Positions 1 through 53,777 are shown, counted from the whole stretch's first letter. The stretch: 62,901 nt of DNA, filler included, from Craspedostauros australis (GCA_030167865.1; 9 parts of 9 records of this genome joined end to end with filler, not necessarily neighbours in it), one strand, 5' to 3'. Made by a program: numbers and translations. The notes: generated by a model from the letters alone, not told the origin.

Positions 1-223
1 AAACGTCACGTTTGCCATGCCGCAGTTGCAGATGGCGATGTGTACATGCCTTAGCCAAGCAAGCAAAGGCGCGGTGTTGCGACAGGAGTGTACTTCGAGT
101 AGTGTACCAAATGTAGAGTTGAATACAGTGGAGTGGAGGAGAGTCAGGTCTGGCAATGTGTCCGGTGAATGTATAATAAAATAGAATATTCCACTCCACA
201 GTCCACATCCCATGTTCTCAAGG

Positions 224-1188
224 CTACAATTCGACATGCTTGGGGGAGGCTTGAGATTGCTGTGTTGAAGTTTCGGTGGAAGTTGTAGCTTGATCTTCGC
301 TGCCGCTCTCACTTGCCATTGGAACCTCCTTGGCGTTGTAAACTGGAGACGACAGCGCGTGTTGGGACAAGAAGCTGTGGAGCTTCCGCTTTGTGAATTC
401 TGCGCCGTCGTAGCGGACAAAAGCATCGTTGTTGTTGACAAGATCCACAAGTTCGCCCGGTGGGATCACAATCAACAGCGGCAGCCCATCTTTGGACGAT
501 TGTGAGATGCCGAACTGTTTCATGATCTCTTGGTTGTTCTTCGTTGGTGGCACTTCCGCAATTAGGATGCGACGACGGAACTCGGTTGAAAGAAACTTCG
601 TCATGGGCGCCGTCCGTGGGTGAACAGGATGGCCAGTGGCAAACCGAACTTCTTCGCCTTGGCAATGGCCTTGTCCAGGTCGGACTGACCAAATGTGATG
701 CGCTGGCTGTAGTTCGTCATCTCATTCTCGATGAACTGCTTCATGTCTTTTGCCTTGCGCTCGAAGTTGTAGTCCACAACGGTCTTGTCCGAGTTGCTCT
801 CAGGCTTGCGCTGCTTCTTCTTGGGCTTGAAGAGACGGATGGTGGGCGTTCCCTGGATTTCCCCCAACAAACGCGGTGGAGGACGGCTGCGGTTCCCCTC
901 CGTGTCCCAATAGGCGATCTTGACGATCCCCTTGGCAGCCTTTGCCAGCTGTTCCCACTCAGGAGTGAGACGCTGGCAGTATCCTCATCCTTGTCGACAG
1001 ATGTTCACAAACACCGCATGGGGTGACTCGACCACCTCCTTTCTCCAGTTTTCATGCGTCAATGCGACCACGTTGGACGAGAACGGATTTCCAGCGCTGA
1101 CAGATGTGACAGCAAGTAGGGCCCCAAGGGTCCAGGCTGTTGCTTTGCGCGCCCACAACAGAGCCGGTCGGTTACTGTGGGCCACCAT
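224..1188 (-). CDS. ER protein disulfide isomerase/thioredoxin-family protein, probable selenoprotein (UGYC active site, Sec at codon 68); -1 frame break near 604-621
   Basis: Signal peptide (..WTLGALLAVTSVSA-G). Thioredoxin fold reads VVALTHENWRKEVVESPHAVFVNICRQG-TGA(987-985)-GYCQRLTPEWEQLAKAAKGIVKIAYWD...GTPTIRLF in one frame to 601. The C-terminal part (TKFLSTEFRRRILIAEV...KHVEL, HDEL-like ER retrieval signal) is in the -1 frame, 604-224. Joins track ORFs 985..1188, 601..870 and 224..604. Confidence 0.85.
943..978 (-). promoter_or_regulatory. Stem-loop starting 6 nt 3' of the in-frame UGA (candidate Sec redefinition element)
   Basis: mRNA: UGA GGAUAC UGCCAGC-GU-CUCACU-CCUG-AGUGGG-AACA-GCUGGCA. 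Perfect 7-bp outer stem plus about 8 further pairs, with two single-A bulges and a 4-nt loop. Confidence 0.55.
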
Positions 1189-2947
1189 GGTGGATTTTCA
1201 GTGTCTTTTGCTGCTCTATCCGAATGTGCAGCTTACGTTTTATGCTGATGCTGTTTTGCGAGCTGCGAGTACAATTGTGCGCCTTCGCGAATCGTCGAAA
1301 AGGGGCTCGTTGCAAAGTGCTTGTGACGACTTCGCCATTTGTCGCAGATCTTTGCTTTTTGTTGCTGATGGATTTGGGGGTTGCGGCGGATTATATTTAG
1401 CGAATATTATCTCACGACGACGTCGCGTTGCATGTCACACGACATGTCTCTACTTTTAGTCATGTATAGCATCAGAACCTGATCGAAGAATCTCATGGTC
1501 GTCCTTCATACATCACACTGTGGCTCAACAGGGACTCCATCGCCGTCAATCATGCGGGCGTCGCTGTTGAGTTGTGTTGGTATGAAGCAGACGCGAGCAC
1601 AAGTACAAGTACAAGTCTGAATGCGCTCTCGTGATGGTCACACACGTTGTCACTTTCACACGAATACCAGCAACTAAATCTTGTACAACGGCTGCCCCCG
1701 CACACTCCTGTACCCACGAATTTCACAAGGATTTGTCTCTATGTAGGTCCTAGCTTGCCGCCTCCAAGATCGGCAGATCTCCGAGACGATACCTGTAGGT
1801 TCCGCCTTGGATGTCGGAATGCCGGTGGATTGCTGACCAGTCTCCAACGTCGTGTATGTGATGCGCAATCGGCACAAAACGGCGCAACGCACTGCATACC
1901 GCACATGCCCATGTACACAAACGTGGATGAGATGGCAGCAAGAAATAGTTGGCGATGTTGAAGTCGGAGTGGGCAGGAATGTTGATGCCTTCGTTGATTT
2001 TTGTCAACAGTTCGCTTTCGACTCAAAAATGTGAAGCAACTTGCGTTCATCGAAATCGTCCATGTTCATCTGTTGCTTGCGTTTTGGTGATCAAGTCGTG
2101 AGCGATAGTCCAAGGAACATTCCACAGAGTTCATTCCTTGATTTCTTGTTCCAACTGGCATTCTCGTCGCTTTCAATTGCGCTCTTTTCGAACCAGGCAC
2201 ACCGCTTGGGAGAAGACGGCAACGATGGCGATAGCAACGACGAAGGCGGTAGCCCTGGAGATATCATGCATTCGCTACCTCAATCCATGCACGGCCAGAT
2301 CGTTGCAAATCTGCGCACCTCTCCATGATCCTTCTCATGTGATCTTTTGAGAAGGGAAGAGAGACCATCTGAGTCCCTCGATCATGGATTGTGGATCGTG
2401 CTGGAACCAGGAGGCGGATGGAAGATCCATCTCGGGATCATGGAGTCTTGCTGAGTGAGAAAGACCTGTCCAGAGATCAAACATGAAAACAACCGAATGT
2501 GTACGGGCCTGCGTCGTGCGTCGTGCGTCGTGCGTCGTGCATCACAGTTGTGCCAAACCTAATCGTCATGCTCAACGCAAGTATTACACTTGCCATCAAA
2601 CCCACGAGCACTCGTGCTCGTGCTCATTCATGCTCACACTCGTAGTCGTACTATGTCTGAAGAGAGGATCATCACATTCGGATCTCACAAAAACGCCCAA
2701 GCTCCAAAGTTGAACACAGACCCCAAAAAACAAAGCCAACTGCGATACCGTTCCACCAAGAGATCTATCATATCCATAGTGATTTCATTGCAAAATACTT
2801 CGGACAAACAAACTCACCAACAGAAAGAAAACAAACAAGTATCACATTACATCAAATACACTACACAGCACTACACTGCACTATACAATTTCTAAACAAC
2901 GTGGTTGAACATCCAACTCCAGGAGACAACCAAGACGTTCCACTATC

Positions 2948-4026
2948 ATGATCCAAGGTATCGAAGTCGAGGCTGATCCTCCCGTCGTTTCCAACGAAGA
3001 AATGCCTTACGAAGAGGATGACGACAACAGCAACAAGAACAAGAACGACGACAACAACAACAACGAGAAGATCTGGCAACGTGTGGCACGACGAGTCGCT
3101 CGCAATCCGCGAAGGTACCTTCTCGGGGCTCTCGCCACTTCTCTGGTGCTCTCCGTCGTTGGCATGGTCGCCGGCGAGTTCAGCGTCGGCGCTGACACTG
3201 GTGGATGGCAATCGCGTGGAACCACGATCGCTGATCGCACTGCGCAAGTGCTGCTCGTCGAGATGAACCGAGAGTACATCTACAACGAAGGAGAGGCGGC
3301 ATGGAGCGATCTCATCAACAATGTCCAGCCAGGATATGATGGTGACGACAGCGACGATGACAGTAACGACAACAGCAAGAGGACCAACACCGGAGATGAC
3401 AATAACCGTCGACTGGCATCATCCTTTGGCTCAACTCCGATTTCATCCTTCCTCTCGCAGGCTTCCACCAGCGTTGGTAGCAACGCTCTCAGACATGGCA
3501 ACCACCGCACTCGCACGATGCCCTTCACCATGACAAGCGAGCTTCGCCGTCGCCTCGAGGAGAAAAGCCATCTCATGCCAGGCTGCGACTTCGGATGGTA
3601 CAATTCGGAATCGATGACCAACTCATCCCGCCTCTGGCCCATCTGGGAGGTCAAGAGCTCCAAGTCAGCCCTTGATGCAGATATCATCTACGAACTTTGC
3701 GTCGCTGAGGAGGACACCCAGCGCATTTTGGAGGAGAAAGGCCACTGCTTTGGATGCGATGAAGGATGTCTCCCACCCTTGTCCATCGTGCTCTACGCCC
3801 GACTCGCCTTGACCTCCGACGACGGTCTGTCCATGTCCTGCGCAGCCCTTCGAGATGCATGGGGGCCATACGAGGCCAAGACGAAGCAAGAATGGATCAC
3901 CTGCGTCACCGACTTCGATACCGACTACGACCCAGAAACCAAGACCATCCCCGCATCTTGCCCTGACCATTTCTCCTCCGCCATGGTGAACTTCGACTAC
4001 GACGAGACTGGCGTGGTGTCTTACAC
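2948..4026 (+). CDS. Dispatched/Patched-like (RND/SSD) membrane protein, 3'-truncated by the contig end
   Basis: Open frame to the spacer. N-terminal TM (RRYLLGALATSLVLSVVGMVAG), GWQSRGTTIADR motif and a Cys-rich luminal loop (ELCVAEEDT..CFGCDEGCLPP). The SSD itself is not reached. Confidence 0.55.
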
Positions 4027-4126
4027 NNNNNNNNNNNNNNNNNNNNNNNNNNNNNNNNNNNNNNNNNNNNTTAATTAATTAANNNNNNNNNNNNNNNNNN
4101 NNNNNNNNNNNNNNNNNNNNNNNNNN
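4027..4126. other. Artificial contig spacer N44-TTAATTAATTAA-N44; same spacer at 16822-16921, 28902-29001, 33299-33398, 37762-37861, 47300-47399, 52218-52317, 57136-57235
   Basis: Identical 100-nt linker with stops in all six frames, repeated eight times. Confidence 0.99.
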
Positions 4127-15911: not shown

Positions 15912-18846
15912 ACATGAGAATCATCAGAACAAAACATTAACGCTCTAACAAAACAAAGCCAGCACTGTAACATCACACTACTTGCATCTACCGTCCCACT
16001 GCACGAGCCTTTAGTTGGGCTGCAGACACAAGCACAACCATAACCGAAGCTTTCCGGAGGAGGCATGCATCAGGTTCCAGCTCCCTCTGGTTGTCGACAT
16101 CGTGCCTGCTCCTTTTTGGTGTGATTGCGCTGCTGCGGCTGTATCGCGACCATCTTCCGCGGCATCGCGTTGCGCAACACCAATCCGATCTTCATGACAC
16201 AAAAGCGAAAGCCCGAAGATTTAGCCTACCTCCGTGCCCACAGAGACTTTGGAAAGACCGTGGTCGCCATTCGCTTCGGCGTTGGACAATAGTAGCGCTT
16301 TCAACCTCGCCGACAAACGTACAAGGAAGGTAATGGGACAGTCATGCGCGGGAACATTGGTCATGCCCCCGACCAGCCAAGGAACTCGGACGGGCAACTC
16401 CGATACATCTGCGGCAAGACGAGAGAACAGGGCACATGTCCAGAGATGTTGCGTGTTTGCTGGTGAGGCAACGTGTCCACAAGGAACAGATACACGCGAC
16501 ATTGTTGTTAACTAATAGATTCGGTACGAGTTATGTACGTGTCCGCTTCATTGATTCCTCGTGCGTGACCGTCCACATTTCTATTTATGGCAGGTACTGT
16601 ACAAAGGAGGCAATTGAAAAATATCGAAGGTGAAATTGGGGCGCTGTCGCAAATACGCCGCAACATTTTGGCGACGTCGAATAGCGCTGGCCAAGGATCT
16701 ACTATGAGCCCGATCAGTGAGTCGACCTGCACTCCGTTATTGGCCTCCAGAAATTTTAGCTTGGATATCCCAACCAAGCACATATTCGTAATCCCTGTAG
16801 GTCTAATACAAATAATTAACCNNNNNNNNNNNNNNNNNNNNNNNNNNNNNNNNNNNNNNNNNNNNTTAATTAATTAANNNNNNNNNNNNNNNNNNNNNNN
16901 NNNNNNNNNNNNNNNNNNNNNAAAAGTGCGGTACAGTGCAGTGCAGTGCATGTGCACGAAAAGTGCGTGAAGTGCAGTGCATGCGCATGCGACGTCGATC
17001 TGTGTACACGGACAGTGTATGGAAAGTGCACATGGTTTCACAGTACATGTTGCTACGCGAATACAGTGCACTCTTCGTGCGTTTGCAGCCCATGCATGGT
17101 TCATCTGCAGTGCAAGCATCCGCACGCGCATGCATTTGCGCATGGGGGGATGCGTTCGACGTTTTTGATGTTGTGCACGACGTGCCTCTGCGCAGGTGGA
17201 ATAATGCAAGACGACGTCATCGTGGAGAATGGTGCGTCGCGAAGGCAATCGTGGAAGGCGAGAGTGCGTGTCCCCCGCACCCACCAACACGCGTCCGGCA
17301 TCAAGTGTGAGCCAGAGACAGACAGCACCCTCGATGGAGAACTTTGTGCATCGTCATCCTGAATCGCGGGGTGGTTGGTGCGTTTGCGATAGCACTGGAA
17401 GGAGAAATGACCTTGTTCCGCCAATGGCATGGAATGCAATAACGCGTCGTCGTTGGGATGTACAGGTGCATGCAAGACACGACCACAGCAGGTGTTTAAT
17501 GTGCATGCATCAGTACTACTGCACCTTTCTGTTCCCCGCGAATAATCCATCTTGGAATGCTTGGATACAGCACGCGTCATCACAAATTTGGCAATGCTAC
17601 GCAAGGTGCTGTGCCCTACCGCATGACCCGCGTCAGATCATGTCAATGAGATCCGTGAGGATGGAGTGGCACGCCCGTGGACGTAGTTGTTTGACATCAT
17701 GGAACATTGCAGATGTCAGAGAGCGTCGGTGTCAATCGTGACGTGAGTTTCCCCGCCCCTCGCTGCGATGACACCAACATCGGTGCAGTCCCTCACCATG
17801 CAGGGAACTCCGTCGACAAGGTAGAGCTTTTTCCGCGTATCACCCAAAAGTAACAGCATATTGTCCGCCGTGCAACTTCAAGTGATATCTTTGCTGGATA
17901 GGAACAACAACACGAAGTACCACGGAATGACAGCTGCGTCCAGTGTCAAGTGCCATCATTGGCATCGTAGTTGCATGAGCGAACGCAATGTGACGCCATG
18001 GCAGGGAAACACGAGTGAGATTGGGGAGAAACGACCGAGACTGTACATCTTTCGTCGCCAAGGAGGGACATGTTGTGTATACGTGTCATCACAGAGCTGG
18101 GCAATCCATGTCGTACAGAACAAACATGGTGATTAAGTGCCGCTGCCGATGGTCTGTTTTGTGACATCAACCCTGTCGCGCGGAGAGCCATCATGCCACA
18201 CCACAAATGCTGGTGACGAAAGCAAATTGGCCTGTCTCCGTCATGAATGACGTTTCCCTGGCTCGCCATGTCAAAGCAGAGGATTCCAAAGGATAAGACA
18301 ATTGGTAGTGTGAAGCAGCGATGGAGTCTTGCATTTGTGGCACTGTTCGTAACAACGCAGTTTTGCTTTCGATCCCGCAAAGACAAGGCACATTGCGGGA
18401 ACAACTAGCTCTATCAGCAAATTACAATCACAAGTGCACTACTACATGTATGTGCTCTGAATCCAATATGTTGTACGCCTGCGAGAGACAGGAAGCTGTG
18501 TAAGGAGCATCCACCATGTCCAATGTTGTGGCTTCATGATAAAATGATAGTGTGAATAGGCACTACATGATGGCTCCCTCTCATTATTGTTTCACGTTTG
18601 ATTGCGATGTGGAGGTCGTTGTGTTCGTCATGCAGCGCAAGATGGCGACGGGTGCACACGCTTCATGTGTTGACACGAAGAACAGCAAATGATTCACGTT
18701 TGTAGGAACAAACGGCACCCACCGCGGAGGTGGCGGCTGTCTGGTATTGGTGTCAGCACGACAGCGCGCAGTGGCTTGTCGACGCTGACACCGACACAAG
18801 ATAAAAAGTAAATCATCTCAAACCAGGCTCGAGTTGGGTTGGGATT

Positions 18847-26627: not shown

Positions 26628-29409
26628 CTTCATCTTTTGCTATTTTCCATACGACACGCAATCCGACCTCGCCGCGCTTGCCACTACCTGCCATACCATG
26701 GACACCTGCGCATCTATAATGGCGTGCCCGTTTAATGCTCGATGGAGGCTTTGCGAATCATCTAAACTGCTCGCAGAACGCTTCACTGTTGAATGCATGC
26801 TCTTGCGTCACCCGCCTGTAATGCGGTACTCGTACTCGTACGCACGGTGCTATGCACAACATGCTGGAGGGGAGCTGCCCAGCCATGCATGTTGATAGCG
26901 CAAGTCTTTCTTCTCCTCGACGGCACTGCCTTCTCACGATAACAACAGCCCCATCTTCGCCACATGAGGTCGGCTTTGGAGGAGCCGGATAAGGAAATAG
27001 AGCACGAAAAGTTTGCCCGAGGCAGTCTCGTAGTTACAGAGCGCTCACACAGGCACAGGGGTACGTATCTGGAACCTGGTACTCGCAAGTCGAGGAGGAG
27101 GATTGGGATTGCCTGTTGGGGTCGCAGATACTCGCACTGCCTGGTGAAATTGGCGTGAACAGTGTTTGAGTATCCGGTTGCACTTCTGGATGTCCGGCAC
27201 AGCAGAATGTTGAAGAGCAGAACAGTCTCACGCCGACACCGGGGCTACTCAGCGAGCGCATGGGACTTCGTTAAGGCCGGAGCGTGATCCGAGCATGCAC
27301 AATGACGGATCATCGGAGATGGACAAGATGACATTGTTCTCATGTTTTCGATCTCAGATGCTGTGCTGCTCCCTGATGCCATTTGTTATGTGAAGGCAAC
27401 CACGATGATGGCAGATAGTTTCCTATAGTACAAGTACTCGGATGTACACGTATGTGTGGGCAGGAACTGTTGGATTCGTAGGAGCATCTTGATTGCAAAG
27501 GTGCCGCCGCTGGCCTTCGTCTCCATGACCACACCTCCAAGTTCAAGCAACCCGGAAGCCCAATGGGACCACTTGGCCCATACTTCGTGGGCGCTGTGGA
27601 GCACCTTCTTCGGAATGGAACGGCAAGACCAAATCCTTCGTCTCGTCACCAGCTTTGGACGTTTGCGCCTGTTTGTTTTTTGTTGTTAGCGTGAGGTTGG
27701 TTGATTCATGGCCAGGCCTGATGTCCCCCAAGGCTCCAGACAGTGCGCGACTGTTGTAAACCTTGGAGAGAGAGAGAGAGAGTGGAGGCAGTGCGACCAA
27801 CTCGGCCCTACTCTACTTGATTGAATGTTCTTATCAATTTGAAGCGTGTCCGCTCTCCTCCGGATCGCAACTGGAACGATTTCCAGCTTCTTGTGGGAAG
27901 GAAGGAAGGAAGGAAGGAAGGAAAGAAAGAAGAATGACAACCATTCAACAGACGAACCACGCCTTCGCAGATCCAAACATAAAAAGAGGACCTACGAGGT
28001 ATCACAAACAGCGCTCTGGCTTGTTTCGCTTGATTGCGACAAAGCACTTCACTTCACTTCACTTCGTGGGGAAAATGTCTTGGTGGAACAAAGAACACAG
28101 AATACTGACTACCGACTGTATCCAGGTACAAGCCACGGAGTACCGGAACCGCCTCCATCACAATGGTTTGCGTCATGGTGATCTCTTGGGCTGTGCCCGC
28201 CGTCTGCGCATGTCATTTCGTTTGTGGGCGCTTTGCACTTCGCAAACGACGCAATTCGATAGCTCGCCGACGTCCTCAAAGCTCTGATCGAAAGATTATC
28301 GCGAAGCCTGTATCGTGGTTGGTCGGAACACTGCGAAAATATTCGAGAATCGTACGGCAGCTCGCCATGGTATCCGGGTAGAGTGGGAGGCATGCACATG
28401 CTAGAATAGTTGAGATTGCATCATTGCATACTCTACATGCATAGTCGTGGCCCCTATGTGCTCCAGCGAGCCGATTTCGAAAAATCCCAACGGGCAGCTC
28501 AGCATGCGGACGTACCAGAATGACGAGATGCGAGAGCGTCTCTGCAAGGGCGGAGCATTTGTCGCCTGTTCACTTTGGGTGCTGCCGCCATCTCTGGGCC
28601 GATTGGCGAGAAGCCATGGTGCGAATTTGTGGAGCGCAACAGGACACATTCGACGAGTATGGCGCAAAAAAACAACACGATACTAGGAGCTACCATACAG
28701 GGAGTTGAGGGAAATTGGCATCCGTGACATATCTCCACCCGTGATTCGACATCTCAGAATCGGATCGAACAATCTCGAATGTTTCGTAACACAACACAAA
28801 TCAGCTGTCTCGATCTTACAAAACTGGTTGTTGTTGAGAACTACTACTACTACTGTTATGTTTGGTGTTGATGTTGGTGCAAGATGCGATTGTGCACTGT
28901 TNNNNNNNNNNNNNNNNNNNNNNNNNNNNNNNNNNNNNNNNNNNNTTAATTAATTAANNNNNNNNNNNNNNNNNNNNNNNNNNNNNNNNNNNNNNNNNNN
29001 NCACCATTTGATTTCATACTCGGCTGTTGTGTGAGAGCAAATAACTAGAGAGCAGAATACGATTGGACGATAGCATCCTTCTTTGGGGTATCCTCATCGT
29101 CGTGTGCTTGTACTGTTGCTGGTGTTGGTCCCGATACTCTTCGAATGCCACCCCACCTCGTCCCCAACTTGCACCCTTCCGAACTTCTCCTGCTTCGTCA
29201 TGGTGCCTGGTGCCATTCGTTCTCCTCCTCCAAATCTCGATCTGTATGGTGTTGTCCGTACGTAAACGTACTTTTGGAATGGAGTAGTGGTGTTCGCGCC
29301 CTTCTCCGCATCATCTGCCTCCTCCATCTCATTCTCACCTTCCACAAACCCCGCTCACGGTCATGCACTGGTACAGTGATACAGTGACACCCACAAAACT
29401 ATGATGGCT

Positions 29410-33103: not shown

Positions 33104-33806
33104 GTTTGTGTTTGTCGCAGAGGAGGTTGCCTGTGACGGTCGCAGGCTGATGACTGATGGCTGATGGCTGCTGGGTGGTATCCGATGCCTGCTACTCCTA
33201 TCGATGTCTACAGTATTGGTGCAACCAACGATCCACGATGCGCGATGCTCGATGGTGGCGTGAGATGTGGGATGTGAGATGGAGGAGGATGGAAGATGNN
33301 NNNNNNNNNNNNNNNNNNNNNNNNNNNNNNNNNNNNNNNNNNTTAATTAATTAANNNNNNNNNNNNNNNNNNNNNNNNNNNNNNNNNNNNNNNNNNNNCA
33401 CCATTTGATTTCATACTCGGCTGTTGTGTGAGAGCAAATAACTAGAGAGCAGAATACGATTGGACGATAGCATCCTTCTTTGGGGTATCCTCATCGTCGT
33501 GTGCTTGTACTGTTGCTGGTGTTGGTCCCGATACTCTTCGAATGCCACCCCACCTCGTCCCCAACTTGCACCCTTCCGAACTTCTCCTGCTTCGTCATGG
33601 TGCCTGGTGCCATTCGTTCTCCTCCTCCAAATCTCGATCTGTATGGTGTTGTCCGTACGTAAACGTACTTTTGGAATGGAGTAGTGGTGTTCGCGCCCTT
33701 CTCCGCATCATCTGCCTCCTCCATCTCATTCTCACCTTCCACAAACCCCGCTCACGGTCATGCACTGGTACAGTGATACAGTGACACCCACAAAACTATG
33801 ATGGCT

Positions 33807-37566: not shown

Positions 37567-37861
37567 GTTTGTGTTTGTCGCAGAGGAGGTTGCCTGTGAC
37601 GGTCGCAGGCTGATGACTGATGGCTGATGGCTGCTGGGTGGTATCCGATGCCTGCTACTCCTATCGATGTCTACAGTATTGGTGCAACCAACGATCCACG
37701 ATGCGCGATGCTCGATGGTGGCGTGAGATGTGGGATGTGAGATGGAGGAGGATGGAAGATGNNNNNNNNNNNNNNNNNNNNNNNNNNNNNNNNNNNNNNN
37801 NNNNNTTAATTAATTAANNNNNNNNNNNNNNNNNNNNNNNNNNNNNNNNNNNNNNNNNNNN

Positions 37862-39397
37862 ACACAGCAGTACATCCACATCAATACACAAGATACTCAT
37901 GATGCTCAGGACGATACCGTGTTCGTGACCTGCGCCGAAGGATCGATGGATCACATGATGGGTCAAACCATCGGTGATGCTAGCAACGATGACAATTATG
38001 ACAACGACGGCGGCGACAGCGATGATGATCAGTACGATGATCCAATGGAATGGGACCCCATCCTCGATGAAGAGAACGTCAAGCCTGCTGCTGGCAACAC
38101 CATCGACACTCGGACATCTTCCAAACTCAAGGCCACAACCACAACCGCGGCCAAAGCCACGTCAATGACGAAACGCAAACCCAGATCAAGCACAACACGC
38201 AACAAGACAAGTACAGGTGTCACCATCACCGTCCATGTAGACCACGGGTACGCATACGATCCCATCCTTCATCAGCAACACCACCAACAGCAACAGCAGT
38301 TTCATCTCATCGAAGGAGTGTCCGACACCATCATCGTTGGATCCAAGCCGACGACACTTACACCTGCAGCCGCAGCTCCAAGCAATCACACCAGTCATGC
38401 CAACCACACATACCACATCGCGCATGGCAGTCATCTCGATGACTCTCATGTGCGGCTGCAGCTCAACATCACCAAGAAGCTCATTTCTGTCACTCTCACT
38501 GATCTCAGCTCGACGAGTGGCATCTTTGTGGAAAGTCAGAAGATCGGCAAGACTGGCCGTGTGTTCCTGAATCAATCGTTCCGCATTGGCAGCACGACGT
38601 TCAAGGTGAAGCCATTGTCGAAGTCGATACCGAGACAGTCGTTGAAGTCCACAGGCAAAGCACACAGATCAGGTGGACAGGTGGCATCACAGGTGGTATC
38701 ACAGGTGCCGTCAGGGCCATCGTCGCAAGCCCACGGAGATGATATTGATATGGAGATCATCGATGTGGATGGTAGCGAAGGTGATCACGATGATTCAAAG
38801 GTCAACGCAAAGGGCGACGACAGGAAGAACGACACTTCTGGTGATATGGATGAAGAGGCTTCACCAGCGTCCGTTCCATCAACATCAGACCGACCGCAGC
38901 AGAAACAGGCACAGCGTCAAGGAGTGCAGCTGGACGTCATCAGCGGTCCACACGAAGGTGAGACCTTCACACTCCAGAAGGGTGGCATCATCAGCCTCAC
39001 CATCGGCTCCAATGCTTCTTTTCTGCCTTCTGCATCTGCTGATGGATCCGTGAAGGATTCCCTCGTCCAGACGCAGATCTGCACAAGGACCAGCACACGA
39101 ACCAGAGCACAACAACAAGCGCAACCGCAGGTACCACAGCAAGAGCAGCAGCAACAACAGCAACAGCAGCCTTCGGAGGTGAAGGTGAGGCTGCACAAAG
39201 ATGCGAGCGTTGCGAAGAACCATGTCCGGCTGGAGCTGAATGCCACGAAGCGCTTGACAACGGTGAAGGTTTTGGATCTAAAGGGAGGATCTACGGTTGT
39301 GCGTAATGTGTTGCTTGGGGAGGGCAAGGCCAGCCGCGCGTTCCTGAATGACAAGGTGACGATCGGTGACACGGTGTTGGTGATTCGCAAGCTGTAG
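37862..39397 (+). CDS. 3' part of the kinase gene (FHA-like domains), truncated by the contig start
   Basis: Reverse complement of 29410-30945. Confidence 0.85.
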   Translation, partial: TQQYIHINTQDTHDAQDDTVFVTCAEGSMDHMMGQTIGDASNDDNYDNDGGDSDDDQYDDPMEWDPILDEENVKPAAGNTIDTRTSSKLKATTTTAAKATSMTKRKPRSSTTRNKTSTGVTITVHVDHGYAYDPILHQQHHQQQQQFHLIEGVSDTIIVGSKPTTLTPAAAAPSNHTSHANHTYHIAHGSHLDDSHVRLQLNITKKLISVTLTDLSSTSGIFVESQKIGKTGRVFLNQSFRIGSTTFKVKPLSKSIPRQSLKSTGKAHRSGGQVASQVVSQVPSGPSSQAHGDDIDMEIIDVDGSEGDHDDSKVNAKGDDRKNDTSGDMDEEASPASVPSTSDRPQQKQAQRQGVQLDVISGPHEGETFTLQKGGIISLTIGSNASFLPSASADGSVKDSLVQTQICTRTSTRTRAQQQAQPQVPQQEQQQQQQQQPSEVKVRLHKDASVAKNHVRLELNATKRLTTVKVLDLKGGSTVVRNVLLGEGKASRAFLNDKVTIGDTVLVIRKL

Positions 39398-40092
39398 AGC
39401 CATCATAGTTTTGTGGGTGTCACTGTATCACTGTACCAGTGCATGACCGTGAGCGGGGTTTGTGGAAGGTGAGAATGAGATGGAGGAGGCAGATGATGCG
39501 GAGAAGGGCGCGAACACCACTACTCCATTCCAAAAGTACGTTTACGTACGGACAACACCATACAGATCGAGATTTGGAGGAGGAGAACGAATGGCACCAG
39601 GCACCATGACGAAGCAGGAGAAGTTCGGAAGGGTGCAAGTTGGGGACGAGGTGGGGTGGCATTCGAAGAGTATCGGGACCAACACCAGCAACAGTACAAG
39701 CACACGACGATGAGGATACCCCAAAGAAGGATGCTATCGTCCAATCGTATTCTGCTCTCTAGTTATTTGCTCTCACACAACAGCCGAGTATGAAATCAAA
39801 TGGTGATGCCGATTCAGCAATGATGAGAGTTGTGTTGTAATGTGGAGCGGCATGGTCGCAGTACCAAAATGGTGATGAATGTATGTGTGTGGGTGGATGT
39901 AGAGCGATGGCGCAGAATAGTACGAGCTATTGTACAACCTACGAAAGTATAATATGTACATACAGTATGCATGGCATACATAGTGCACCCAAATGTGTTG
40001 GCGAGATCGTGAAGCTGATCGAGTTGGCGAGCAAAAGGTTAGGTTCCAACAGAGCTGCGGGTGTTGTGGATGTGTAGCGGAACAAAAGGACA

Positions 40093-40166
40093 AGCTTCAT
40101 CGCGGATTCGAACCACGGACCTCCTCATTACTAATGAGGTGCTCTAACCAACTGAGCTAATGGAGC
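40093..40166 (-). tRNA. tRNA-Thr (anticodon AGT)
   Basis: Reverse complement of the 44981-45054 cloverleaf, followed by TTTT. Confidence 0.93.
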
Positions 40167-40560
40167 TGTTGCCGCAATTACTGTTGCTGCCATCCTAGGC
40201 CAATCCACTGTACAAATACTATAATACAAGCATGTACTCATGTGTCGCATCATTTTGGTCTCATCTCACCAGTCGATCCGCTTCCTGTCCTTCCGACTGT
40301 TCACCTTTTCATAACCGTGTAGATCGTACTCATACAACACAACCTTCTGAATCTTCTGTGTTGCGTGTGATCCTTCTCAGTTATGCTTCTGCTCTAATGT
40401 GTATTTATGTTCCGGAATGTGTTCCGGAATGTACTGTACATAGAAATGTGTTGTTCCTCCAGCCCAAACAACTGCTCGCTACCGCCTCCAGAAAGTCCAT
40501 CGTATCACTGCTGATGCGATCCATTCAGCATGACGCGTCTCGGTGCCTTGCGATGATGAC

Positions 40561-43412
40561 TCATGTGCTGTCTTGTTCGCCACGACTGGTCGTACCGGAA
40601 TTGATCTCAGGTCCGCAGATGGAAAGGACAACAGGAAGCAAGACGAGGCCATGGCCGATTCCAATGGTCACGAGTCCGATGAAGGCAATGAAGATGGTCG
40701 AAAAGATCGTGCTCGTGGAGAAGGCGAGTGGGATGACGCCAAGGAATGTGGAAAGACCACCGAGGAATACGGACGATCCCATGGTTCGAAGCAGCTCGAC
40801 GACCCTGGTTCTACGATCTCCGGGGATTTCGTAGTATCGCAGAAGGATATGGATGAGGAAGTCGACCAGCAGACCGATGGACATGACCAACGAAACGTAG
40901 CTGACGGTATTGATGTGGACGCCGGCCAATTGAAGGAAGCCAAGCAGATCGACGTAGAGGATGGTAATGAACGGAGCCACGAAGAATGTGGCAGTCCAAT
41001 GCGGAATAAAGATCATACTCAGCACAGTGACAGAGACGACACCCAGGATGGTAGTCAGAATCAGCTCTTGCACCGCGACTGCGTAGAATTCCCAGATGGA
41101 GTACAGCGATGCGTAGGTGAAGAAATTCCAATATTTCTGGCCTCTGTTGGTTGGCTGTATCCTGCTCGTCTCTCGCTGGTTGAGCAACGCATCAATCAAG
41201 TCCTCGACATCGTCGTTATCGAGGTTGTCCATGTAGATGCTGACGCGGGATGCAGTGATCTTGTTGTTTTCATCCACGACAATGTCGTTGCGGTACTGCG
41301 TCTGGCTAGCCTCTTCCGCGAAGAAGGCATCGAACTGGTCCTGGAATGACTTATCCTGGATGCTGGAGGTTTCGTTGACGTACGCTTCGAAGTCCTTGAT
41401 CCAGAAGAATGGCGGCTCATATGAAATTTCATGCATGGCCACAAGATCGTCAACGTACGTCTTCATCTCCTCTCTGACATCTTCGGAGGTTTGATCGACG
41501 TTACGGAAGTACGCTTCGATGACGTATCCACCACGAGTGGTGAAATCATCGTACGAATCCCAGTATGGCTTAATGTACTGTGAGTGAAGAAGGAATAGTA
41601 GCGGACCGGATGGTAGAGGAGGGTAAACAGGGGAGGAGAATGTGCAGATACGCAGCGGTTAGATGAGGACGATTGAGCATGGTACAGCTGTCACTCGAAT
41701 ACGGGCACTCGTGCGATGAGAGAATCGTGTCCGATACCACTTACCGAATCCGACGGAACGACATCAGTGAATTCGAACTCTTGAGTTAGAAGGGAGGCGC
41801 TGTAGCTGCATGCGCATGCGATTGCAAGGAACACGACCACCACGACTACCTTGACAGCGGGTTGCAGCAGAAAGTTTGCATACGACACCATCATGCGGTC
41901 GATGATGGATTCTTCGGGCTCAATCGGCAGCTGGGTTTCTCCCTTCGCGACGTTGTCATTCTCGTCATCATCACGAGCGTTTTGATCCTCCTCATCTTTC
42001 GGAACAGCGATGCACACGCAGCAATCGCGCCGATTGTCCTGGATACGGCGCTCATCGATGGCCATGAGAGCGATATAGAATGTCATTTGGTAGAAGAAGT
42101 CGATGAGGATGGTGGGGAACGCGTACATGCACAACCAGTAGACAGAGGGAATGGTGGAGATGCATCCCATGGCGAAGGCAACAGATGAAGTGGTCGTGGT
42201 CAGCGCGATGCTGACTCCAACATCTCGGACGGTGTCTTCGATGCGTTGTTCGACGGACCGATTTGGATCTGTGCGTTGGAAGGATCCGGACAGGATGTAC
42301 GCTGCGTCCATTCCGATGCCGAACATGATGAAGGGAAGAATCTGCGTCATGGAGGTGAACGGGACACCGATCAGAAAGAGCAGACCGTATCCAGTCATGA
42401 TGCTGAGGAAGACGGAGACGACAGCACCAAAGCCCAGGGTTGTCCGTGACTTGACTCTGTCCTTCTTGAAGAAGACCATGCAGGTGAAGATGCTCATGAC
42501 GGTGAAGACCATCGGCACGAGCGGGATGTCAGCCATGATGGCACGTCCGAATTCATCGGAGAAGGAACGTTGAGAGAAGACCTCCACCTTGTACGGATTG
42601 CTCTTGTCGGCATTCCATGCGTCCTGCAGATCGAAGACATTCTCCAAGGCACTGGATTCAAACTCTTCAGCTTCGGGAGTTTCCGGCAAATCAAAATGGA
42701 TGAGGAAGATCCTGGACGAGACGAGAATCTCGTTTTCGTCGTAGGTGTTGGTCCCCAGCACGCTTTCGGTGTCCACGCCAGTCCCGTCCGGATACTTTTT
42801 AGCGGACATGGCGATGAGGACCTCTTCGTCGGTAGGACCTGCGGCTTCGAACACGGCCGTCGAATGATTCCAGAAGTTGGTGATGGCTTTGAGCTGGCAG
42901 GTGCTTCTTTGGGTACCGTCTGCGAGCATCTCAGTGGCGCCGCCCTCCAGGCAAATCTGTTCGTAATCGGGCGTGTTGCGAACGGTATCGACTGCTTCGA
43001 AGACGCGCTTGACGCCATCCGCAGCGAGGACGTTGTCGCCGTCGATGTGAACGGTCATGAGGAAGAAGCGCGGATCCAACGGAAAACCTGATGACTCGTC
43101 GATCCAGTCCTTGTGCTGCCGCGAGCGGCTCTTGCTGGGCGAGTACAGAATGTCCTCGTCCACCTCGACGTAGAAGTTGGTGAACAGGCCGAGCACGACC
43201 ATGGACAGCGCGAAGCAGATGGTCAAGGAGACCGTGGTCTTTGGGAACTTGACGGCCGTCCCAGAGAGTTTCAGCAGAACGTTAGTGATGGGCTCGTGGA
43301 TGAAGCGGAGGATGGCCCTGGACCATTGGGCACCGATGCTGGTGTCGTCGTCGTCATAGTAAGCATTTCCATGGCGCGATGGCGCTGACGATGTTTCCTT
43401 TCTTTCGCTCAT
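40561..43412 (-). CDS. Patched/NPC1-like sterol-sensing-domain (RND) membrane protein; exons 43412-41745 and 41577-40561 (about 894 aa)
   Basis: SSD-like ILPFIMFGIGMDAAYIL and GVSIALTTTTS..AFAMG. Splicing gives VVPSDS|YIKPYW. Second TM cluster LVMSIGLLVDFLIHI..MGSSVFLGGLSTFLG..GHGLVLLPVVLS. GTAAGT..CAG intron. Confidence 0.92.
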
Positions 43413-44409: not shown

Positions 44410-44586
44410 GTCATCCCACTCGCCTTCTCCACGAGCACGATCTTTTCGACCATCTTTATTGCCTTCATCGGACTCGTGACGATTGGAATCGGCCATGGCC
44501 TCGTCTTGCTTCCTGTTGTCCTTTCCATCTGCGGACCTGAGATCAATTCCGGCACGACCAGTCGTGGTGAACAAGACAGCACATGA
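44410..44586 (+). pseudogene. Duplicated 3'-terminal fragment of the Patched/NPC1-like gene
   Basis: VIPLAFSTSTIF...SRGEQDST* matches the C-terminus of the 40561 gene. Homology begins abruptly at 44410 with no upstream gene body. Confidence 0.85.
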
Positions 44587-44980
44587 GTCATCATCGCAAG
44601 GCACCGAGACGCGCCATGCCGAATGGATCGCATCAGCGGTGATACGATGGACTTTCTGGAGGCGTTATCGAACAGTTCTTTGGGCTGGAGGAACAACACA
44701 TTTCTATGTACGGTACATTCCGGAACACATTCCGGAACATAAATACACATTAGAGCAGAAGCATAAATGAGCAGGATCACACGCAACACAGAAGATTCAG
44801 ACGGTTGTGTTGTATGAGTACGATCTACACGGTCATGAAAAGGTGAACAGCGGGAAGGACAGGAAGCAGATCGACTGGTGAGATGAGACCAAAATGGTTC
44901 AACATATGAGGAACTGTTTGCATTAGCTAGTTTGTACAATAGATTGGCCAAGATCGGCAGCAACAGCAATGATGGCAACA

Positions 44981-45054
44981 GCTCCATTAGCTCAGTTGGT
45001 TAGAGCACCTCATTAGTAATGAGGAGGTCCGTGGTTCGAATCCGCGATGAAGCT
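44981..45054 (+). tRNA. tRNA-Thr (anticodon AGT)
   Basis: GCTCCAT TA GCTC AGTTGGTTA GAGC A CCTCA TT-AGT-AA TGAGG AGGTC CGTGG TTCGAAT CCGCG ATGAAGC T. A and B boxes intact; T5 Pol III terminator at 45059-45063. Confidence 0.95.
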
Positions 45055-45763
45055 TGTCTTTTTGTTTCGCTACACATCCACAACACCTACGACTCTGTTG
45101 GAACCAAACCTTTTGCTCACCAACTCGATCAGCTTCACAACGTCACCAACACATTTGGGTGCACTATGTATGCCACGCATACTACTGTATGTACATATTA
45201 TACTTTCGTGGGTTGTACATAGCTCGTACTATGCTGCGCCATCGCTCTACATCTACCTACACACATACACACATACATACATTCATCACCATTTTGGTAC
45301 TGCGACCATTCCGCTCCACATTCCAACACAACTCTCATCATTGCTGGATCGGCACCACCATTTGATTTCATACTCGGCTGTTGTGTGAGAGCAAATAACT
45401 AGAGAGCAGAATACGATTGGACGATAGCATCCTTCTTTGGGGTATCCTCATCGTCGTGTGCTTGTACTGTTGCTGGTGTTGGTCCCGATACTCTTCGAAT
45501 GCCACCCCACCTCGTCCCCAACTTGCACCCTTCCGAACTTCTCCTGCTTCGTCATGGTGCCTGGTGCCATTCGTTCTCCTCCTCCAAATCTCGATCTGTA
45601 TGGTGTTGTCCGTACGTAAACGTACTTTTGGAATGGAGTAGTGGTGTTCGCGCCCTTCTCCGCATCATCTGCCTCCTCCATCTCATTCTCACCTTCCACA
45701 AACCCCGCTCACGGTCATGCACTGGTACAGTGATACAGTGACACCCACAAAACTATGATGGCT

Positions 45764-47299
45764 CTACAGCTTGCGAATCACCAACACCGTGTCACCGATC
45801 GTCACCTTGTCATTCAGGAACGCGCGGCTGGCCTTGCCCTCCCCAAGCAACACATTACGCACAACCGTAGATCCTCCCTTTAGATCCAAAACCTTCACCG
45901 TTGTCAAGCGCTTCGTGGCATTCAGCTCCAGCCGGACATGGTTCTTCGCAACGCTCGCATCTTTGTGCAGCCTCACCTTCACCTCCGAAGGCTGCTGTTG
46001 CTGTTGTTGCTGCTGCTCTTGCTGTGGTACCTGCGGTTGCGCTTGTTGTTGTGCTCTGGTTCGTGTGCTGGTCCTTGTGCAGATCTGCGTCTGGACGAGG
46101 GAATCCTTCACGGATCCATCAGCAGATGCAGAAGGCAGAAAAGAAGCATTGGAGCCGATGGTGAGGCTGATGATGCCACCCTTCTGGAGTGTGAAGGTCT
46201 CACCTTCGTGTGGACCGCTGATGACGTCCAGCTGCACTCCTTGACGCTGTGCCTGTTTCTGCTGCGGTCGGTCTGATGTTGATGGAACGGACGCTGGTGA
46301 AGCCTCTTCATCCATATCACCAGAAGTGTCGTTCTTCCTGTCGTCGCCCTTTGCGTTGACCTTTGAATCATCGTGATCACCTTCGCTACCATCCACATCG
46401 ATGATCTCCATATCAATATCATCTCCGTGGGCTTGCGACGATGGCCCTGACGGCACCTGTGATACCACCTGTGATGCCACCTGTCCACCTGATCTGTGTG
46501 CTTTGCCTGTGGACTTCAACGACTGTCTCGGTATCGACTTCGACAATGGCTTCACCTTGAACGTCGTGCTGCCAATGCGGAACGATTGATTCAGGAACAC
46601 ACGGCCAGTCTTGCCGATCTTCTGACTTTCCACAAAGATGCCACTCGTCGAGCTGAGATCAGTGAGAGTGACAGAAATGAGCTTCTTGGTGATGTTGAGC
46701 TGCAGCCGCACATGAGAGTCATCGAGATGACTGCCATGCGCGATGTGGTATGTGTGGTTGGCATGACTGGTGTGATTGCTTGGAGCTGCGGCTGCAGGTG
46801 TAAGTGTCGTCGGCTTGGATCCAACGATGATGGTGTCGGACACTCCTTCGATGAGATGAAACTGCTGTTGCTGTTGGTGGTGTTGCTGATGAAGGATGGG
46901 ATCGTATGCGTACCCGTGGTCTACATGGACGGTGATGGTGACACCTGTACTTGTCTTGTTGCGTGTTGTGCTTGATCTGGGTTTGCGTTTCGTCATTGAC
47001 GTGGCTTTGGCCGCGGTTGTGGTTGTGGCCTTGAGTTTGGAAGATGTCCGAGTGTCGATGGTGTTGCCAGCAGCAGGCTTGACGTTCTCTTCATCGAGGA
47101 TGGGGTCCCATTCCATTGGATCATCGTACTGATCATCATCGCTGTCGCCGCCGTCGTTGTCATAATTGTCATCGTTGCTAGCATCACCGATGGTTTGACC
47201 CATCATGTGATCCATCGATCCTTCGGCGCAGGTCACGAACACGGTATCGTCCTGAGCATCATGAGTATCTTGTGTATTGATGTGGATGTACTGCTGTGT
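45764..47299 (-). CDS. 3' part of the kinase gene on the second inverted arm, truncated by the contig end
   Basis: Matches 29410-30945. Confidence 0.85.
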   Translation of the reverse strand, partial: TQQYIHINTQDTHDAQDDTVFVTCAEGSMDHMMGQTIGDASNDDNYDNDGGDSDDDQYDDPMEWDPILDEENVKPAAGNTIDTRTSSKLKATTTTAAKATSMTKRKPRSSTTRNKTSTGVTITVHVDHGYAYDPILHQQHHQQQQQFHLIEGVSDTIIVGSKPTTLTPAAAAPSNHTSHANHTYHIAHGSHLDDSHVRLQLNITKKLISVTLTDLSSTSGIFVESQKIGKTGRVFLNQSFRIGSTTFKVKPLSKSIPRQSLKSTGKAHRSGGQVASQVVSQVPSGPSSQAHGDDIDMEIIDVDGSEGDHDDSKVNAKGDDRKNDTSGDMDEEASPASVPSTSDRPQQKQAQRQGVQLDVISGPHEGETFTLQKGGIISLTIGSNASFLPSASADGSVKDSLVQTQICTRTSTRTRAQQQAQPQVPQQEQQQQQQQQPSEVKVRLHKDASVAKNHVRLELNATKRLTTVKVLDLKGGSTVVRNVLLGEGKASRAFLNDKVTIGDTVLVIRKL

Positions 47300-47673
47300 N
47301 NNNNNNNNNNNNNNNNNNNNNNNNNNNNNNNNNNNNNNNNNNNTTAATTAATTAANNNNNNNNNNNNNNNNNNNNNNNNNNNNNNNNNNNNNNNNNNNNG
47401 ACGTTACTCAACACTGAGAGGGGGTCCAAGTGACAAACACATGCCATCCATGCTCAAACATCGCGAGAAGAGCCCACCCATCGAACACCGACCAGGTGAC
47501 GACCAACGATGGCGGCAAAAGCAATGCGAAGAATGCGAAGAAGCTTCTCATAAAATCGGAAATCACATCTCCACCAACAAAGCTCAACAACGTACTATTA
47601 TACTTACTGCGAGTAGCTCCTCCATTCGAACAAGCCCAGCAAAACCAAACCAAACCAGCCACGCATCAGCACC

Positions 47674-48512
47674 ATGAAGCTCATCTCCATGCCAACCCTC
47701 ATCCTTGCCGTTCTGTACCTGACGGATCTCCACGGCGGCAGCGGTAGCGGCAACGCAGGCGTTGAAGCGTTCACGATCAACGTGATCCCGACCATGCCTG
47801 CGGCTCGTCATGCAGAAGGGCCGTCTATCACTTGCCCAGTTGACACCAAGGCTGCGACGGCCTTGTTCTCCACCGAACAAGGCCAAGTAGGTCCGGACTC
47901 TGTCGCAGAAGCGAGAGACGTGAAAGACAAACTTGCGGTAAGTATCGGAAGAGAAACGAAGGATGGAGACGCCTGCGATCACTGTGCGATATCATATGAA
48001 AGTAATTCATGTCGAGTTATGGTATCGATGTGCAGCAACCGCCCGCCAGATCTGAACGCGCGACTCACACCAATCAACTCTGCTATACTCGGATGTTCTC
48101 CTGTTGTTCAATTTCCGACATACGTAATACATTGGTATGTACTATACCATGTCGACACGCCCACCATATCATATCATGTCATACAATCGTACATCACGCC
48201 ATAACACAATAGCTTGTCAGGGATGACATCGACCAAAATGGTTCAGGTTTGGACTGGGCTAAGGTGGACACCACTCTCGCATCGACCAACCAACTCACCG
48301 GCGCGATGGAAAGAAAGGCGCTTGAATACGCCCCCTTGTCCCCCCAACGTATCCGAATCAACCAGCTCGCGGGGAACAACAACTTGTATCACTCATCAGC
48401 AGTGGCACACAGGGCCAACAGCGATCATGTATCTCTTCGGGCGGATGCAGTGCTCCTCATTGAAGGCTGCGGCGACTACATCTGCATCATTCAACCGGAG
48501 CTCCCCGCATAG
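47674..48512 (+). CDS. Small hypothetical protein with bipartite plastid-targeting-like presequence; exons 47674-47937 and 48213-48512 (187 aa)
   Basis: Hydrophobic signal (TLILAVLYL), VEA-F cleavage-like motif and ..ATALFS transit-like end. Phase-0 GTAAGT..TAG intron. The exon 2 model is less certain. Confidence 0.5.
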
Positions 48513-48859
48513 AGGTGTTGAGCCCCTGTTGCCAGCGTGTCCGAAGGAGGAAGGCTGTTGGCCGTTTCAAAGTCCGAGTTCCACATCTTGCATCCGTGCG
48601 CGATGGATAACCTCACACGAGTGGTCCATGCATGCTCCATCCGGTTTACGATGCATGGTACGAATAGCTCGCCAAGCACAAGGCTGGTTGGCTTCCAACC
48701 ACACGGAACTCATGCAATCTAATGTTAACTCCATAGTGCCATAGCGCCAAACTTGACTCTAGAGAGAGAGAGAGAGAGAGAGAGCATAAATTAAAGCACG
48801 GGCTAGAGTGTGGGTTCGCTCCGTCTATCCGTTTCATTTGTCAGCCCAAACTAGCATCA

Positions 48860-51800: not shown

Positions 51801-52217
51801 GACCGAGATCTTGCCCCTACTGCAATGCGGTACGTGTAATTTGCCTCACCAATCCAACTCACCGTGGGAGTTAACATCGTGTCATCACCGCAAATGCCAT
51901 GCGTTAATGGGTCGAATCCGGAGACTGCAGAACACAGATAACTGGTGCAGTTCCCGTCAAGCACGCGCACATCCATGAATCGGAAGTCTTTGATAGAGCA
52001 AACGTGGACCGTCAGCTGAGATCTTTCTGCTGGGCTCGTGACCTGATACCAAACCGCGTCCATAGTGGGGGGATTGCTGCTCGTATCCCAACATCCTGCT
52101 ACCGAGCTCGACCTCGTTACCGTGGCTGAGAATTGGATTGGTTCGTCGCCCAATTCCAACTCCACCGCCTTATCGCACTGGTCATTCGGCACGACTTCAT
52201 TGATACTGAGACTAAAC
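48860..52217 (-). CDS. Large Cys-rich tandem-domain protein (at least 7 repeats of ~150 aa), probably extracellular, variant 1, 5'-truncated
   Basis: Frame is open to the contig edge. Repeated N-D-x-C-xx-A ... G(A/V)W(Y/F) ... ASTC ... V(Y)SG-x-C-xx-L-x-C ... W-x-S-xx-G-xx-Y-x-I motif. Confidence 0.85.
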
Positions 52218-52591
52218 NNNNNNNNNNNNNNNNNNNNNNNNNNNNNNNNNNNNNNNNNNNNTTAATTAATTAANNNNNNNNNNNNNNNNNNNNNNNNNNN
52301 NNNNNNNNNNNNNNNNNGACGTTACTCAACACTGAGAGGGGGTCCAAGTGACAAACACATGCCATCCATGCTCAAACATCGCGAGAAGAGCCCACCCATC
52401 GAACACCGACCAGGTGACGACCAACGATGGCGGCAAAAGCAATGCGAAGAATGCGAAGAAGCTTCTCATAAAATCGGAAATCACATCTCCACCAACAAAG
52501 CTCAACAACGTACTATTATACTTACTGCGAGTAGCTCCTCCATTCGAACAAGCCCAGCAAAACCAAACCAAACCAGCCACGCATCAGCACC

Positions 52592-53430: not shown

Positions 53431-53777
53431 AGGTGTTGAGCCCCTGTTGCCAGCGTGTCCGAAGGAGGAAGGCTGTTGGCCGTTTCAAAGTCCGAGTTCC
53501 ACATCTTGCATCCGTGCGCGATGGATAACCTCACACGAGTGGTCCATGCATGCTCCATCCGGTTTACGATGCATGGTACGAATAGCTCGCCAAGCACAAG
53601 GCTGGTTGGCTTCCAACCACACGGAACTCATGCAATCTAATGTTAACTCCATAGTGCCATAGCGCCAAACTTGACTCTAGAGAGAGAGAGAGAGAGAGAG
53701 AGCATAAATTAAAGCACGGGCTAGAGTGTGGGTTCGCTCCGTCTATCCGTTTCATTTGTCAGCCCAAACTAGCATCA

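Follow-up and report, generated by a model that had tools for sequence, protein, structure and literature searches.

Does an in-frame TGA in a diatom PDI-like gene specify selenocysteine (Sec), or does it end the reading frame? Reports of PDI-like proteins with Sec date back to 2005-2007 and cover E. huxleyi, T. pseudonana, and other algae. The question arises at a locus of Craspedostauros australis (assembly GCA_030167865.1) on the minus strand of a 62,901-nucleotide stretch of DNA, filler included, which we analyzed as a whole and refer to as the window. A preliminary description, made without database searches, had read positions 224 to 1188 as one PDI gene with the TGA at its catalytic position. 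We believe that the locus is very probably a diatom Sec-PDI gene with a single catalytic domain in which UGA-68 encodes Sec, and that the copy assembled here reflects either an error of assembly or a defective allele or haplotig.

The TGA codon at the active site of a PDI-like domain

Across the site, the minus strand reads ...AAC ATC TGT CGA CAA GGA TGA GGA TAC TGC CAG CGT CTC ACT CCT GAG TGG... directly. Translated from the ATG at 1188, the ORF on this strand runs MVAHSNRPALLW...FVNICRQG, meets the TGA at 987-985, and goes on as GYCQRLTPEWEQLAKAAK.... The 127 sense codons that had been counted behind the in-frame TGA were recovered exactly by our translation. By inspection, residues 1-32 hold a hydrophobic core followed by ...SVSA/GNP, and equivalent hydrophobic N termini are present in homologues among the aligned database matches. 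The positions of all features are collected in Table 1.

The Pfam Thioredoxin family (PF00085) spans the TGA, matching residues 40-135 with an E value of 1.1e-14 and 54.7 bits against a cut-off of 23.5. When searched against PDB sequences with phmmer, the protein aligned without gaps to the a domain of PDIA6 (2dml_A; E 1.4e-13) and to that of TXNDC5 (8eky_M; E 1e-17). In both PDB alignments, U68 falls opposite the first Cys of CGHC and NICRQG replaces EFYAPW, in agreement with the earlier placement of the TGA at the nucleophilic Cys of the PDI motif. The locus thereby shows a PDI trait, namely a catalytic thioredoxin domain whose CxxC-type site lies at the N terminus of helix 2. Two further features that had been pointed out, a Gly in place of the usual Trp and an extra Cys upstream, are seen as G67 and Cys64.

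Table 1. Features of the PDI-like locus, in window coordinates
Feature	Position	Strand	Basis
ATG start of the PDI-like gene (ORF 985..1188)	1186..1188	-	First ATG after an in-frame stop; translation
Signal-peptide-like N-terminal segment, residues 1-32	1093..1188	-	Inspection of translation
Catalytic thioredoxin (PDI a-type) domain, residues 40-135	784..1071	-	PF00085; PDIA6 and TXNDC5 alignments
Cys64 codon TGT, four residues before the Sec codon	997..999	-	Direct read; translation
In-frame TGA, codon 68, proposed selenocysteine, N-terminal position of U-G-Y-C	985..987	-	Read; PDB alignment; relatives
Cys71 codon TGC, resolving Cys of UGYC	976..978	-	Read; translation
Junction of the 7-nt deletion	618..619		X1 contig has 7 letters inserted behind 618; P0026, P0123; family consensus
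Rest of protein in another frame: b-type thioredoxin-like domain to about 341, Ser/Thr/Gln-rich tail, C-terminal HVEL (238-227)	227..616	-	
Premature TGA stop of the shifted frame	601..603	-	Translation; assembled protein ends ...LAILFTHGRRP
TAG stop of the intact gene model	224..226	-	Read; translation
Visible 3'UTR, ending at the window edge	1..223	-	No SECIS detected
Weak SECIS-like remnant, putative	141..211	-	3' half = family GACCTGA; 5' half ATGT for ATGA, A.A helix mismatch

Conservation of the codon and of a SECIS element in relatives

DNA of relatives was taken from metagenome and metatranscriptome contigs. These gave 80 loci, mostly of 1.1-1.7 kb and transcript-like, whose protein identity to the window was 37-69% for the main match and up to about 80% for single short exons. 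The codon aligned to U68 was TGA in 76 of the 80 loci; the remaining 4 are unaligned there, and no locus has any other codon at this position. The protein is conserved on both sides of the codon (PHAVFVN[IMLV]CRxG-TGA-GYCQxLxPEWExLA), the pattern expected of a UGA that is kept among selenoprotein orthologues. The contig of a public run (X1) that contains the stretch has the identical codon, with no difference at 985-987. Thus, the TGA is not private to this assembly. The Cys71 column reads TGC or TGT in all 76 aligned loci. At the Cys64 column, TGC or TGT was found in 66 of 74 loci and AGC or AGT in the other 8, and these 8 Ser codons were taken to be intron read-through, as they occur in genomic loci where the alignment breaks just upstream.

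At the protein level, we inspected 28 aligned database homologues at the site. Seven have Cys (MCRxGCGYC; P0010, P0011, P0013, P0014, P0016, P0018, and P0020), 15 have W, and 6 are truncated or mis-modelled. An in-frame UGA therefore stands opposite the Cys of homologues, another selenoprotein trait, with respect both to the PDIs of the PDB and to 7 of the 28 family matches.

The W residues raise the question of whether TGA is read as Trp, or as some other residue, through a variant genetic code. Such a code would suit the 15 W-containing proteins, and it would also suit the stop codons of the family, since all 56 transcript-like homologue ORFs end in TAA or TAG and none in TGA. However, Trp columns elsewhere in the protein are written TGG, in 70 of 74 loci at W48 and in 76 of 78 at W94, and never TGA. 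The TGA is confined to the catalytic position; outside position 68, aligned TGA occurred in two cases only, one each at query positions 8 and 75. The canonical PDI residue at the site is Cys, Cys forms exist, and the recoding is explained by the SECIS described below. We consider the chance of a variant code to be negligible.

The W itself appears to be a gene-caller artefact. For three proteins paired with their loci (P0003/L001, P0006/L011, and P0023/L050; locus identity, 99.0-99.3%), the W at the Sec site is TGA in the DNA. Pairing was done by near-identical matching, since exact matching gave none. Other database entries are distorted around the same codon. P0123, which belongs to the 90% cluster of P0026, starts with MRILPAS, a +1-frame reading across the TGA of the window, and this implies a TGA in its source sequence. 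P0027 and P0123 both hop frames around the Sec codon, so that a TGA is implied in the source of P0027 as well. The source names of both carry identifiers of MMETSP, which we take to be a transcriptome project. P0024, an NCBI model, has an unrelated N terminus. Among the matches listed, at least about 95 of 120 cover no more than 63% of the query, in keeping with the earlier expectation that the gene would be fragmented by standard annotation. Members of this family fare badly in public protein sets, which place W at the Sec site, truncate models at the N terminus, and contain frame-hopped peptides, and reading the raw sequence alone can reveal a real selenoprotein gene.

We then turn to the 3'UTRs of the homologues, which by inspection share tgaATGACGGTCT...AGACCTGAa. 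A motif scan found the SECIS core ATGA[CT]G in 54 of 56 transcript-like homologue 3'UTRs, and the best core pairings lie 41-243 nt past the stop. An early strict helix scan had reported a SECIS in 6 of 56 only; because of its rigidity, we moved to motif and duplex scans and to a covariance model. In the alignment of 32 elements, the six core-proximal pairs are 90.3% paired and 5 of the 6 show double-sided changes, with a covariation score that was reached by none of 500 shuffles. When the partner was slid by one column in this alignment, pairing fell from 73.6% to 50-55%.

The covariance model built from the 32-element alignment, termed R1, was run on 41 held-out loci and matched 27 at E<=1 and 23 at E<0.05. 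The matches all fall on the coding strand, and each R1 match that was compared with its coding match lay downstream of it. Rfam returned no SECIS family match on 20 homologue loci, and the SECIS identification rests on our own model R1 together with inspection. The element in the homologues has classic eukaryotic SECIS anatomy. This makes Sec a well-supported reading of the UGA for the family, about as well supported as computation allows; the conserved TGA, the Cys forms, and the homologue SECIS all point toward the decoding that had been proposed from the window.

These data also bear on whether the TGA is an ordinary stop, leaving a dead gene or two chance ORFs and no Sec. Under the standard code, a 67-codon ORF does end at 985, and no SECIS is visible in the window. 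Nevertheless, the codon persists in relatives that share as little as about 37% protein identity, the sequence behind it is strongly conserved, and the homologues carry a covarying SECIS and include Cys forms. An ordinary stop is already contradicted at the family level, and we regard it as very improbable at this locus.

The frameshift and the 3' end of the window copy

The reading of 224 to 1188 as a single read-through gene did not hold. The frame of TGA-68 stops at a second TGA (603-601), and the C-terminal part of the protein lies in a different frame. The last 126 codons (604-224, ...FLSTEFRRRILIAEV...KHVEL and then TAG) are read in that other frame. The two parts are separated by 7 missing bases, which in relatives code for the Ser-Lys of a conserved LFTSK. 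Over the junction, the family consensus is LFTSKxxTSPLTKxLSTEFRRR, while the window reads LAILFT and then shifts. P0026 and P0123, at least 94% identical to the window, read LFTSKPRTAPM across the junction.

The X1 sequence contains the missing letters. Its one contig of 2481 nt corresponds to window positions 1-1982 plus 492 nt past position 1, and its 7 additional letters restore LFT-SK-PRTAPMTKF on the coding strand. X1 is the sole public run with the stretch and consists of contigs only, whose RNA nature is a guess; runs X2 and X3 do not cover the stretch, and no RNA run is listed as containing it. Compared with the window, X1 has 13 substitutions, all within 90-596, and none in 597-1982. 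In the second domain, the copy assembled in the window has thus lost 7 nt from a motif that is invariant in the family, and this breaks the gene. Because near-identical relatives have an intact frame, we read this copy as an assembly flaw or as a defective allele or haplotig of an otherwise working selenoprotein gene. Users of this assembly should be warned that its copy is frameshifted.

As assembled, the product is without the b domain and without the C-terminal HVEL. The out-of-frame remainder (P0002) is 97.7% identical to P0123 over 131 residues. Alone, it matched no Pfam family, and the second domain is split by the frameshift in the window. In the homologue P0010, PF13848 (Thioredoxin_6) passes its cut-off (28.9 versus 27 bits), and the family profile aligns with both domains of yeast Mpd1p (3ed3_A) over profile positions 30-254 with an E value of 2.1e-08. 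Full-length homologues end in EL or EF (KVEL, HSEF, KTEF, and GEEL), as does the HVEL here, and by inspection these ends resemble ER retrieval signals.

In the 223 nt after the TAG, ATGA is absent. Rfam, run at a permissive threshold over window 1-1300, gave nothing relevant at E<=10; this blank carries little weight because Rfam also missed the evident elements of the homologues. R1 reached a best score of 1.7 bits in window 1-260. Over the whole window, it gave 12 matches at E<=10, the best at 11.4 bits (E 1.3), and none of them was in the 3'UTR of the gene. One of these matches, at 1515-1462 on the minus strand (11.1 bits; E 1.5), was rejected as chance; it lies upstream of the ATG, has AGGA rather than AUGA, and folds no better than its shuffles (z 0.14). 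The fold of the 226-nt 3' end is not unusually stable (z -1.23).

The visible 3'UTR does hold two sequences that recall the family element. The SECIS-like stretch at 211-141 has no R1 score, the X1 differences at 200-201 do not keep its pairing, and as a SECIS it is unproven. At window 8-4, TGACG occurs as in the family core ATGACG, with G before it instead of A. A SECIS that the window edge cuts off might begin here, but the string is not significant alone.

How the deletion arose is best considered together with these 3' ends. The gene may be intact and functional in the organism, with the 7-nt gap an assembly or consensus error and the SECIS just past the window edge. The frame is intact in two near-identical relatives, the X1 contig continues beyond window position 1, and the window is draft sequence, fragmented into short pieces with N spacers between them. 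The TGACG in the last bases of the visible UTR would fit as well, although by our estimate this motif arises by chance about once per five such UTRs. A 7-nt deletion is, however, atypical as a consensus error. A SECIS beyond the edge is possible but unusual, because only in two of the homologue 3'UTRs inspected does the core lie more than 214 nt past the stop (L024 at 243 and L053 at 228). Overall, we put an intact gene at slightly less than an even chance.

Conversely, the deletion may exist in the organism, in a real defective allele or in a decaying haplotig or paralogue whose product stops behind the a domain, lacking both the b domain and the ER-retrieval end, and whose SECIS is perhaps degenerate. 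That the deletion strikes a family-invariant motif speaks for this, as does the distribution of the X1 substitutions, which fall exclusively in the post-frameshift coding sequence and the 3'UTR. The putative remnant, with its broken core, sits at the usual SECIS location of the family. Yet, apart from the deletion, the protein is intact to either side of it and shares 96-98% identity with P0123, and by our own reading of the comparison, just 3 of the 6 X1 coding differences are non-synonymous and lie in variable regions. Small indels can also arise in draft assembly. Furthermore, X1 has the same SECIS-less 223 nt but an intact frame, and therefore the real SECIS may lie further downstream.

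The setting of the gene is compatible with both explanations. In the window, N44-TTAATTAATTAA-N44 spacers link short pieces, many of them near-identical duplicates, into a chain that suits an assembly flaw as well as a real defective allele or haplotig. The piece with the gene is short (at most 4026 bases before the first spacer), which, among spacer-joined pieces with near-identical duplicates, would fit unplaced haplotigs. We consider a genuinely defective copy possible, and hold this view tentatively. Elsewhere in the window, ARAGORN found no tRNA-Sec, and the tRNAs there are 2 tRNA-Thr genes. A neighboring plus-strand ORF at 2948-4024 matched no Pfam family.

Relation to known Sec-PDIs and a model of the active site

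The preliminary description had pointed out that Sec-containing PDI-like proteins are known in algae, and the literature bears this out with examples from E. huxleyi and T. pseudonana (PMC6254913 and PMC2375036, partial texts). EhSEP2 of E. huxleyi is a PDI-like selenoprotein identified with 75Se labelling, with one thioredoxin domain and a UGHC site (PMC6254913, partial text). Like this protein of a marine alga, the locus here encodes a single domain of thioredoxin homology whose first active-site position is Sec, going by the description of EhSEP2 in the same partial text. The motif differs, being UGYC after an N-I-C-R-x-G lead-in rather than UGHC, a comparison with the published description only (PMC6254913, partial text). 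EhSEP2 comes from a haptophyte, whereas the named matches of the family studied here are diatoms (Nitzschia and a name beginning with "Cosci").

In T. pseudonana, two Sec-PDI homologues and a sequenced tRNA-Sec were reported (PMC2375036, partial text). Algal Sec-PDIs have been split into PDI_a to PDI_e, with 20-44 selenoprotein genes per diatom (PMC7539508, partial text). With the T. pseudonana proteins and these algal groups, as they appear in the portions of PMC2375036 and PMC7539508 at hand, the family shares its nature as a diatom or algal PDI-like selenoprotein, one Sec in a thioredoxin-fold site, a 3'UTR SECIS, and common Cys forms. The part of supplement file 2 of PMC2375036 at hand contains no UGYC or GYCQ string and no "pseudonana PDI" row, and shows only the DsbA-like Ostreococcus PDI2/3 (UPWC/UPNG). 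The string UGYC in the sense of a Sec-PDI was not found among the literature matches listed, and a search on a selenocysteine PDI selenoprotein of Phaeodactylum gave no match. This kind of protein is already known; what the literature examined, which was available in part, leaves unstated is at most the CRxG-UGYC subfamily with its SECIS consensus. The biological addition is small. A modest use is that the family SECIS model and the conserved C-x3-U-x2-C site could guide annotation and a simple mutational test.

Among proteins of known structure, the ER-type yeast Mpd1p (3ed3) is alike in fold and in its a-b architecture. The a domains of human PDIA6 and TXNDC5, also ER-type, resemble the a domain here with E values of 1e-13 to 1e-17. 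All three have Cys and the canonical FYAPWCGHC, in contrast to Sec, Trp changed to Gly, and Tyr changed to Cys in the present family.

From these likenesses, the full-length protein would consist of a signal peptide, a thioredoxin a domain, a b-type thioredoxin-like domain, and a C-terminal xxEL end like an ER retrieval signal, as in Mpd1p. In its U-G-Y-C active site, UGA-68 would supply selenocysteine as the nucleophilic residue, and recoding in the family would depend on a canonical SECIS hairpin in the 3'UTR (AUGA ... GA core). We infer that the enzyme is an ER thiol-disulfide oxidoreductase or isomerase and that Sec is inserted in Craspedostauros australis. By analogy with established PDI chemistry and the EhSEP2 precedent, Sec68 would attack substrate disulfides and Cys71 would resolve the mixed selenosulfide.

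Among a-b PDIs, this diatom-wide lineage has exchanged the near-universal FYAPW for an N-[IMVL]-C-R-x-G lead-in, which gives it a conserved C-x3-U-x2-C triad. Homologues of the Cys form have this Cys at -4 as well. We also hypothesized a further role for Cys64, which might act as a third redox partner, e.g., as an alternative resolving Cys in a selenosulfide with Sec68. If true, the catalytic cycle would be unlike that of classical CGHC PDIs and of EhSEP2. We consider this idea unlikely as it stands, and less likely still is that the 7-nt-deleted copy is a real allele for an a-domain-only Sec-thioredoxin without ER retrieval.

The distribution of the lead-in was viewed in a wider set of relatives. 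In a library-wide profile search, 3790 relatives passed E<=0.001, and 117 of them passed E<=1e-30. Of 145 distant representatives screened, 78 have an xGxC-type site, mostly of the APWCGHC type. A CRxG-type lead-in or a close variant of it was present in P0007, P0010, P0177, P0212, P0234, and P0265, and intermediates with YREG were seen in P0164, P0188, and P0223.

Terminators, substitutions and an upstream hairpin

The intact model of the PDI gene, the minus-strand Sec-PDI-like gene of the first piece, ends in TAG. None of the 56 homologue ORFs (homologue transcripts L001 to L056) had a TGA terminator, all of them ending in TAA or TAG. When the window was compared with the contig from sequencing run X1, 13 of 13 substitutions fell within 90-596, in the 3'UTR and the coding part after the frameshift, and 0 were found in the 1386 bases upstream (597-1982). 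Either relaxed constraint or a boundary between haplotypes could explain this clustering.

A hairpin at 1462-1515 (-), which lies before the start of the PDI gene on its upstream side, gave the second-best score in the window with R1, our SECIS covariance model (11.1 bits, E 1.5). We rejected this match as chance, since AGGA replaces AUGA and folding was no better than that of shuffles (z 0.14).

Annotation of the family in public protein sets

The Sec-PDI family is handled wrongly in public protein sets (database proteins P0003-P0122). Some proteins carry W at the Sec codon, the caller having read TGA as Trp, and about 95 among the 120 matches listed are N-terminally truncated models covering at most 63% of the query. 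Two further entries, P0027 and P0123, are peptides that hop between reading frames, and P0024, an NCBI model named "thioredoxin [Nitzschia inconspicua]," has an unrelated N-terminus where the Sec exon belongs.

Make-up of the window and duplicated pieces

The window is made up of separate pieces, not one natural contig, joined by eight spacers, each consisting of 44 N, TTAATTAATTAA, and 44 N. The first piece, with at most 4026 of its bases in the window, carries the PDI gene. In the product of its long plus-strand ORF, a hydrophobic segment comes after the acidic/Asn-rich N-terminus, and no Pfam match was obtained at an E of ≤0.01.

The pieces at 29002-60417, on the right-hand side of the window, are near-identical copies of one another, in direct and inverted orientation. 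Possible explanations are contig redundancy, haplotigs and a repeat family. Because these pieces are duplicated, chance matches of R1 have equal scores at 31480/35943 and at 49772/54690/57985. The two tRNA-Thr(AGT) genes of the window lie in opposite orientation.

Coordinates of spacers, duplicates and genes in the window
Feature	Position	Strand	Remarks
Spacers	4027-4126, 16822-16921, 28902-29001, 33299-33398, 37762-37861, 47300-47399, 52218-52317, 57136-57235		
Long ORF	2948-4026	+	359+ codons; runs into first N spacer
Duplicate pair	47400-52217 vs 52318-57135		4819 bp, 99.4% identity
Inverted duplicate	within 29002-60417		3182 bp, 100% identity
Inverted duplicate	37862-40737 / 44410-47299		2896 bp, 97.4% identity
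Four-copy duplicate	within 29002-60417		1944 bp, 100% identity
tRNA-Thr(AGT)	40092-40167	-	within 2.9-kb inverted duplicate 37862-40737 / 44410-47299
tRNA-Thr(AGT)	44980-45055	+	within the same 2.9-kb inverted duplicate
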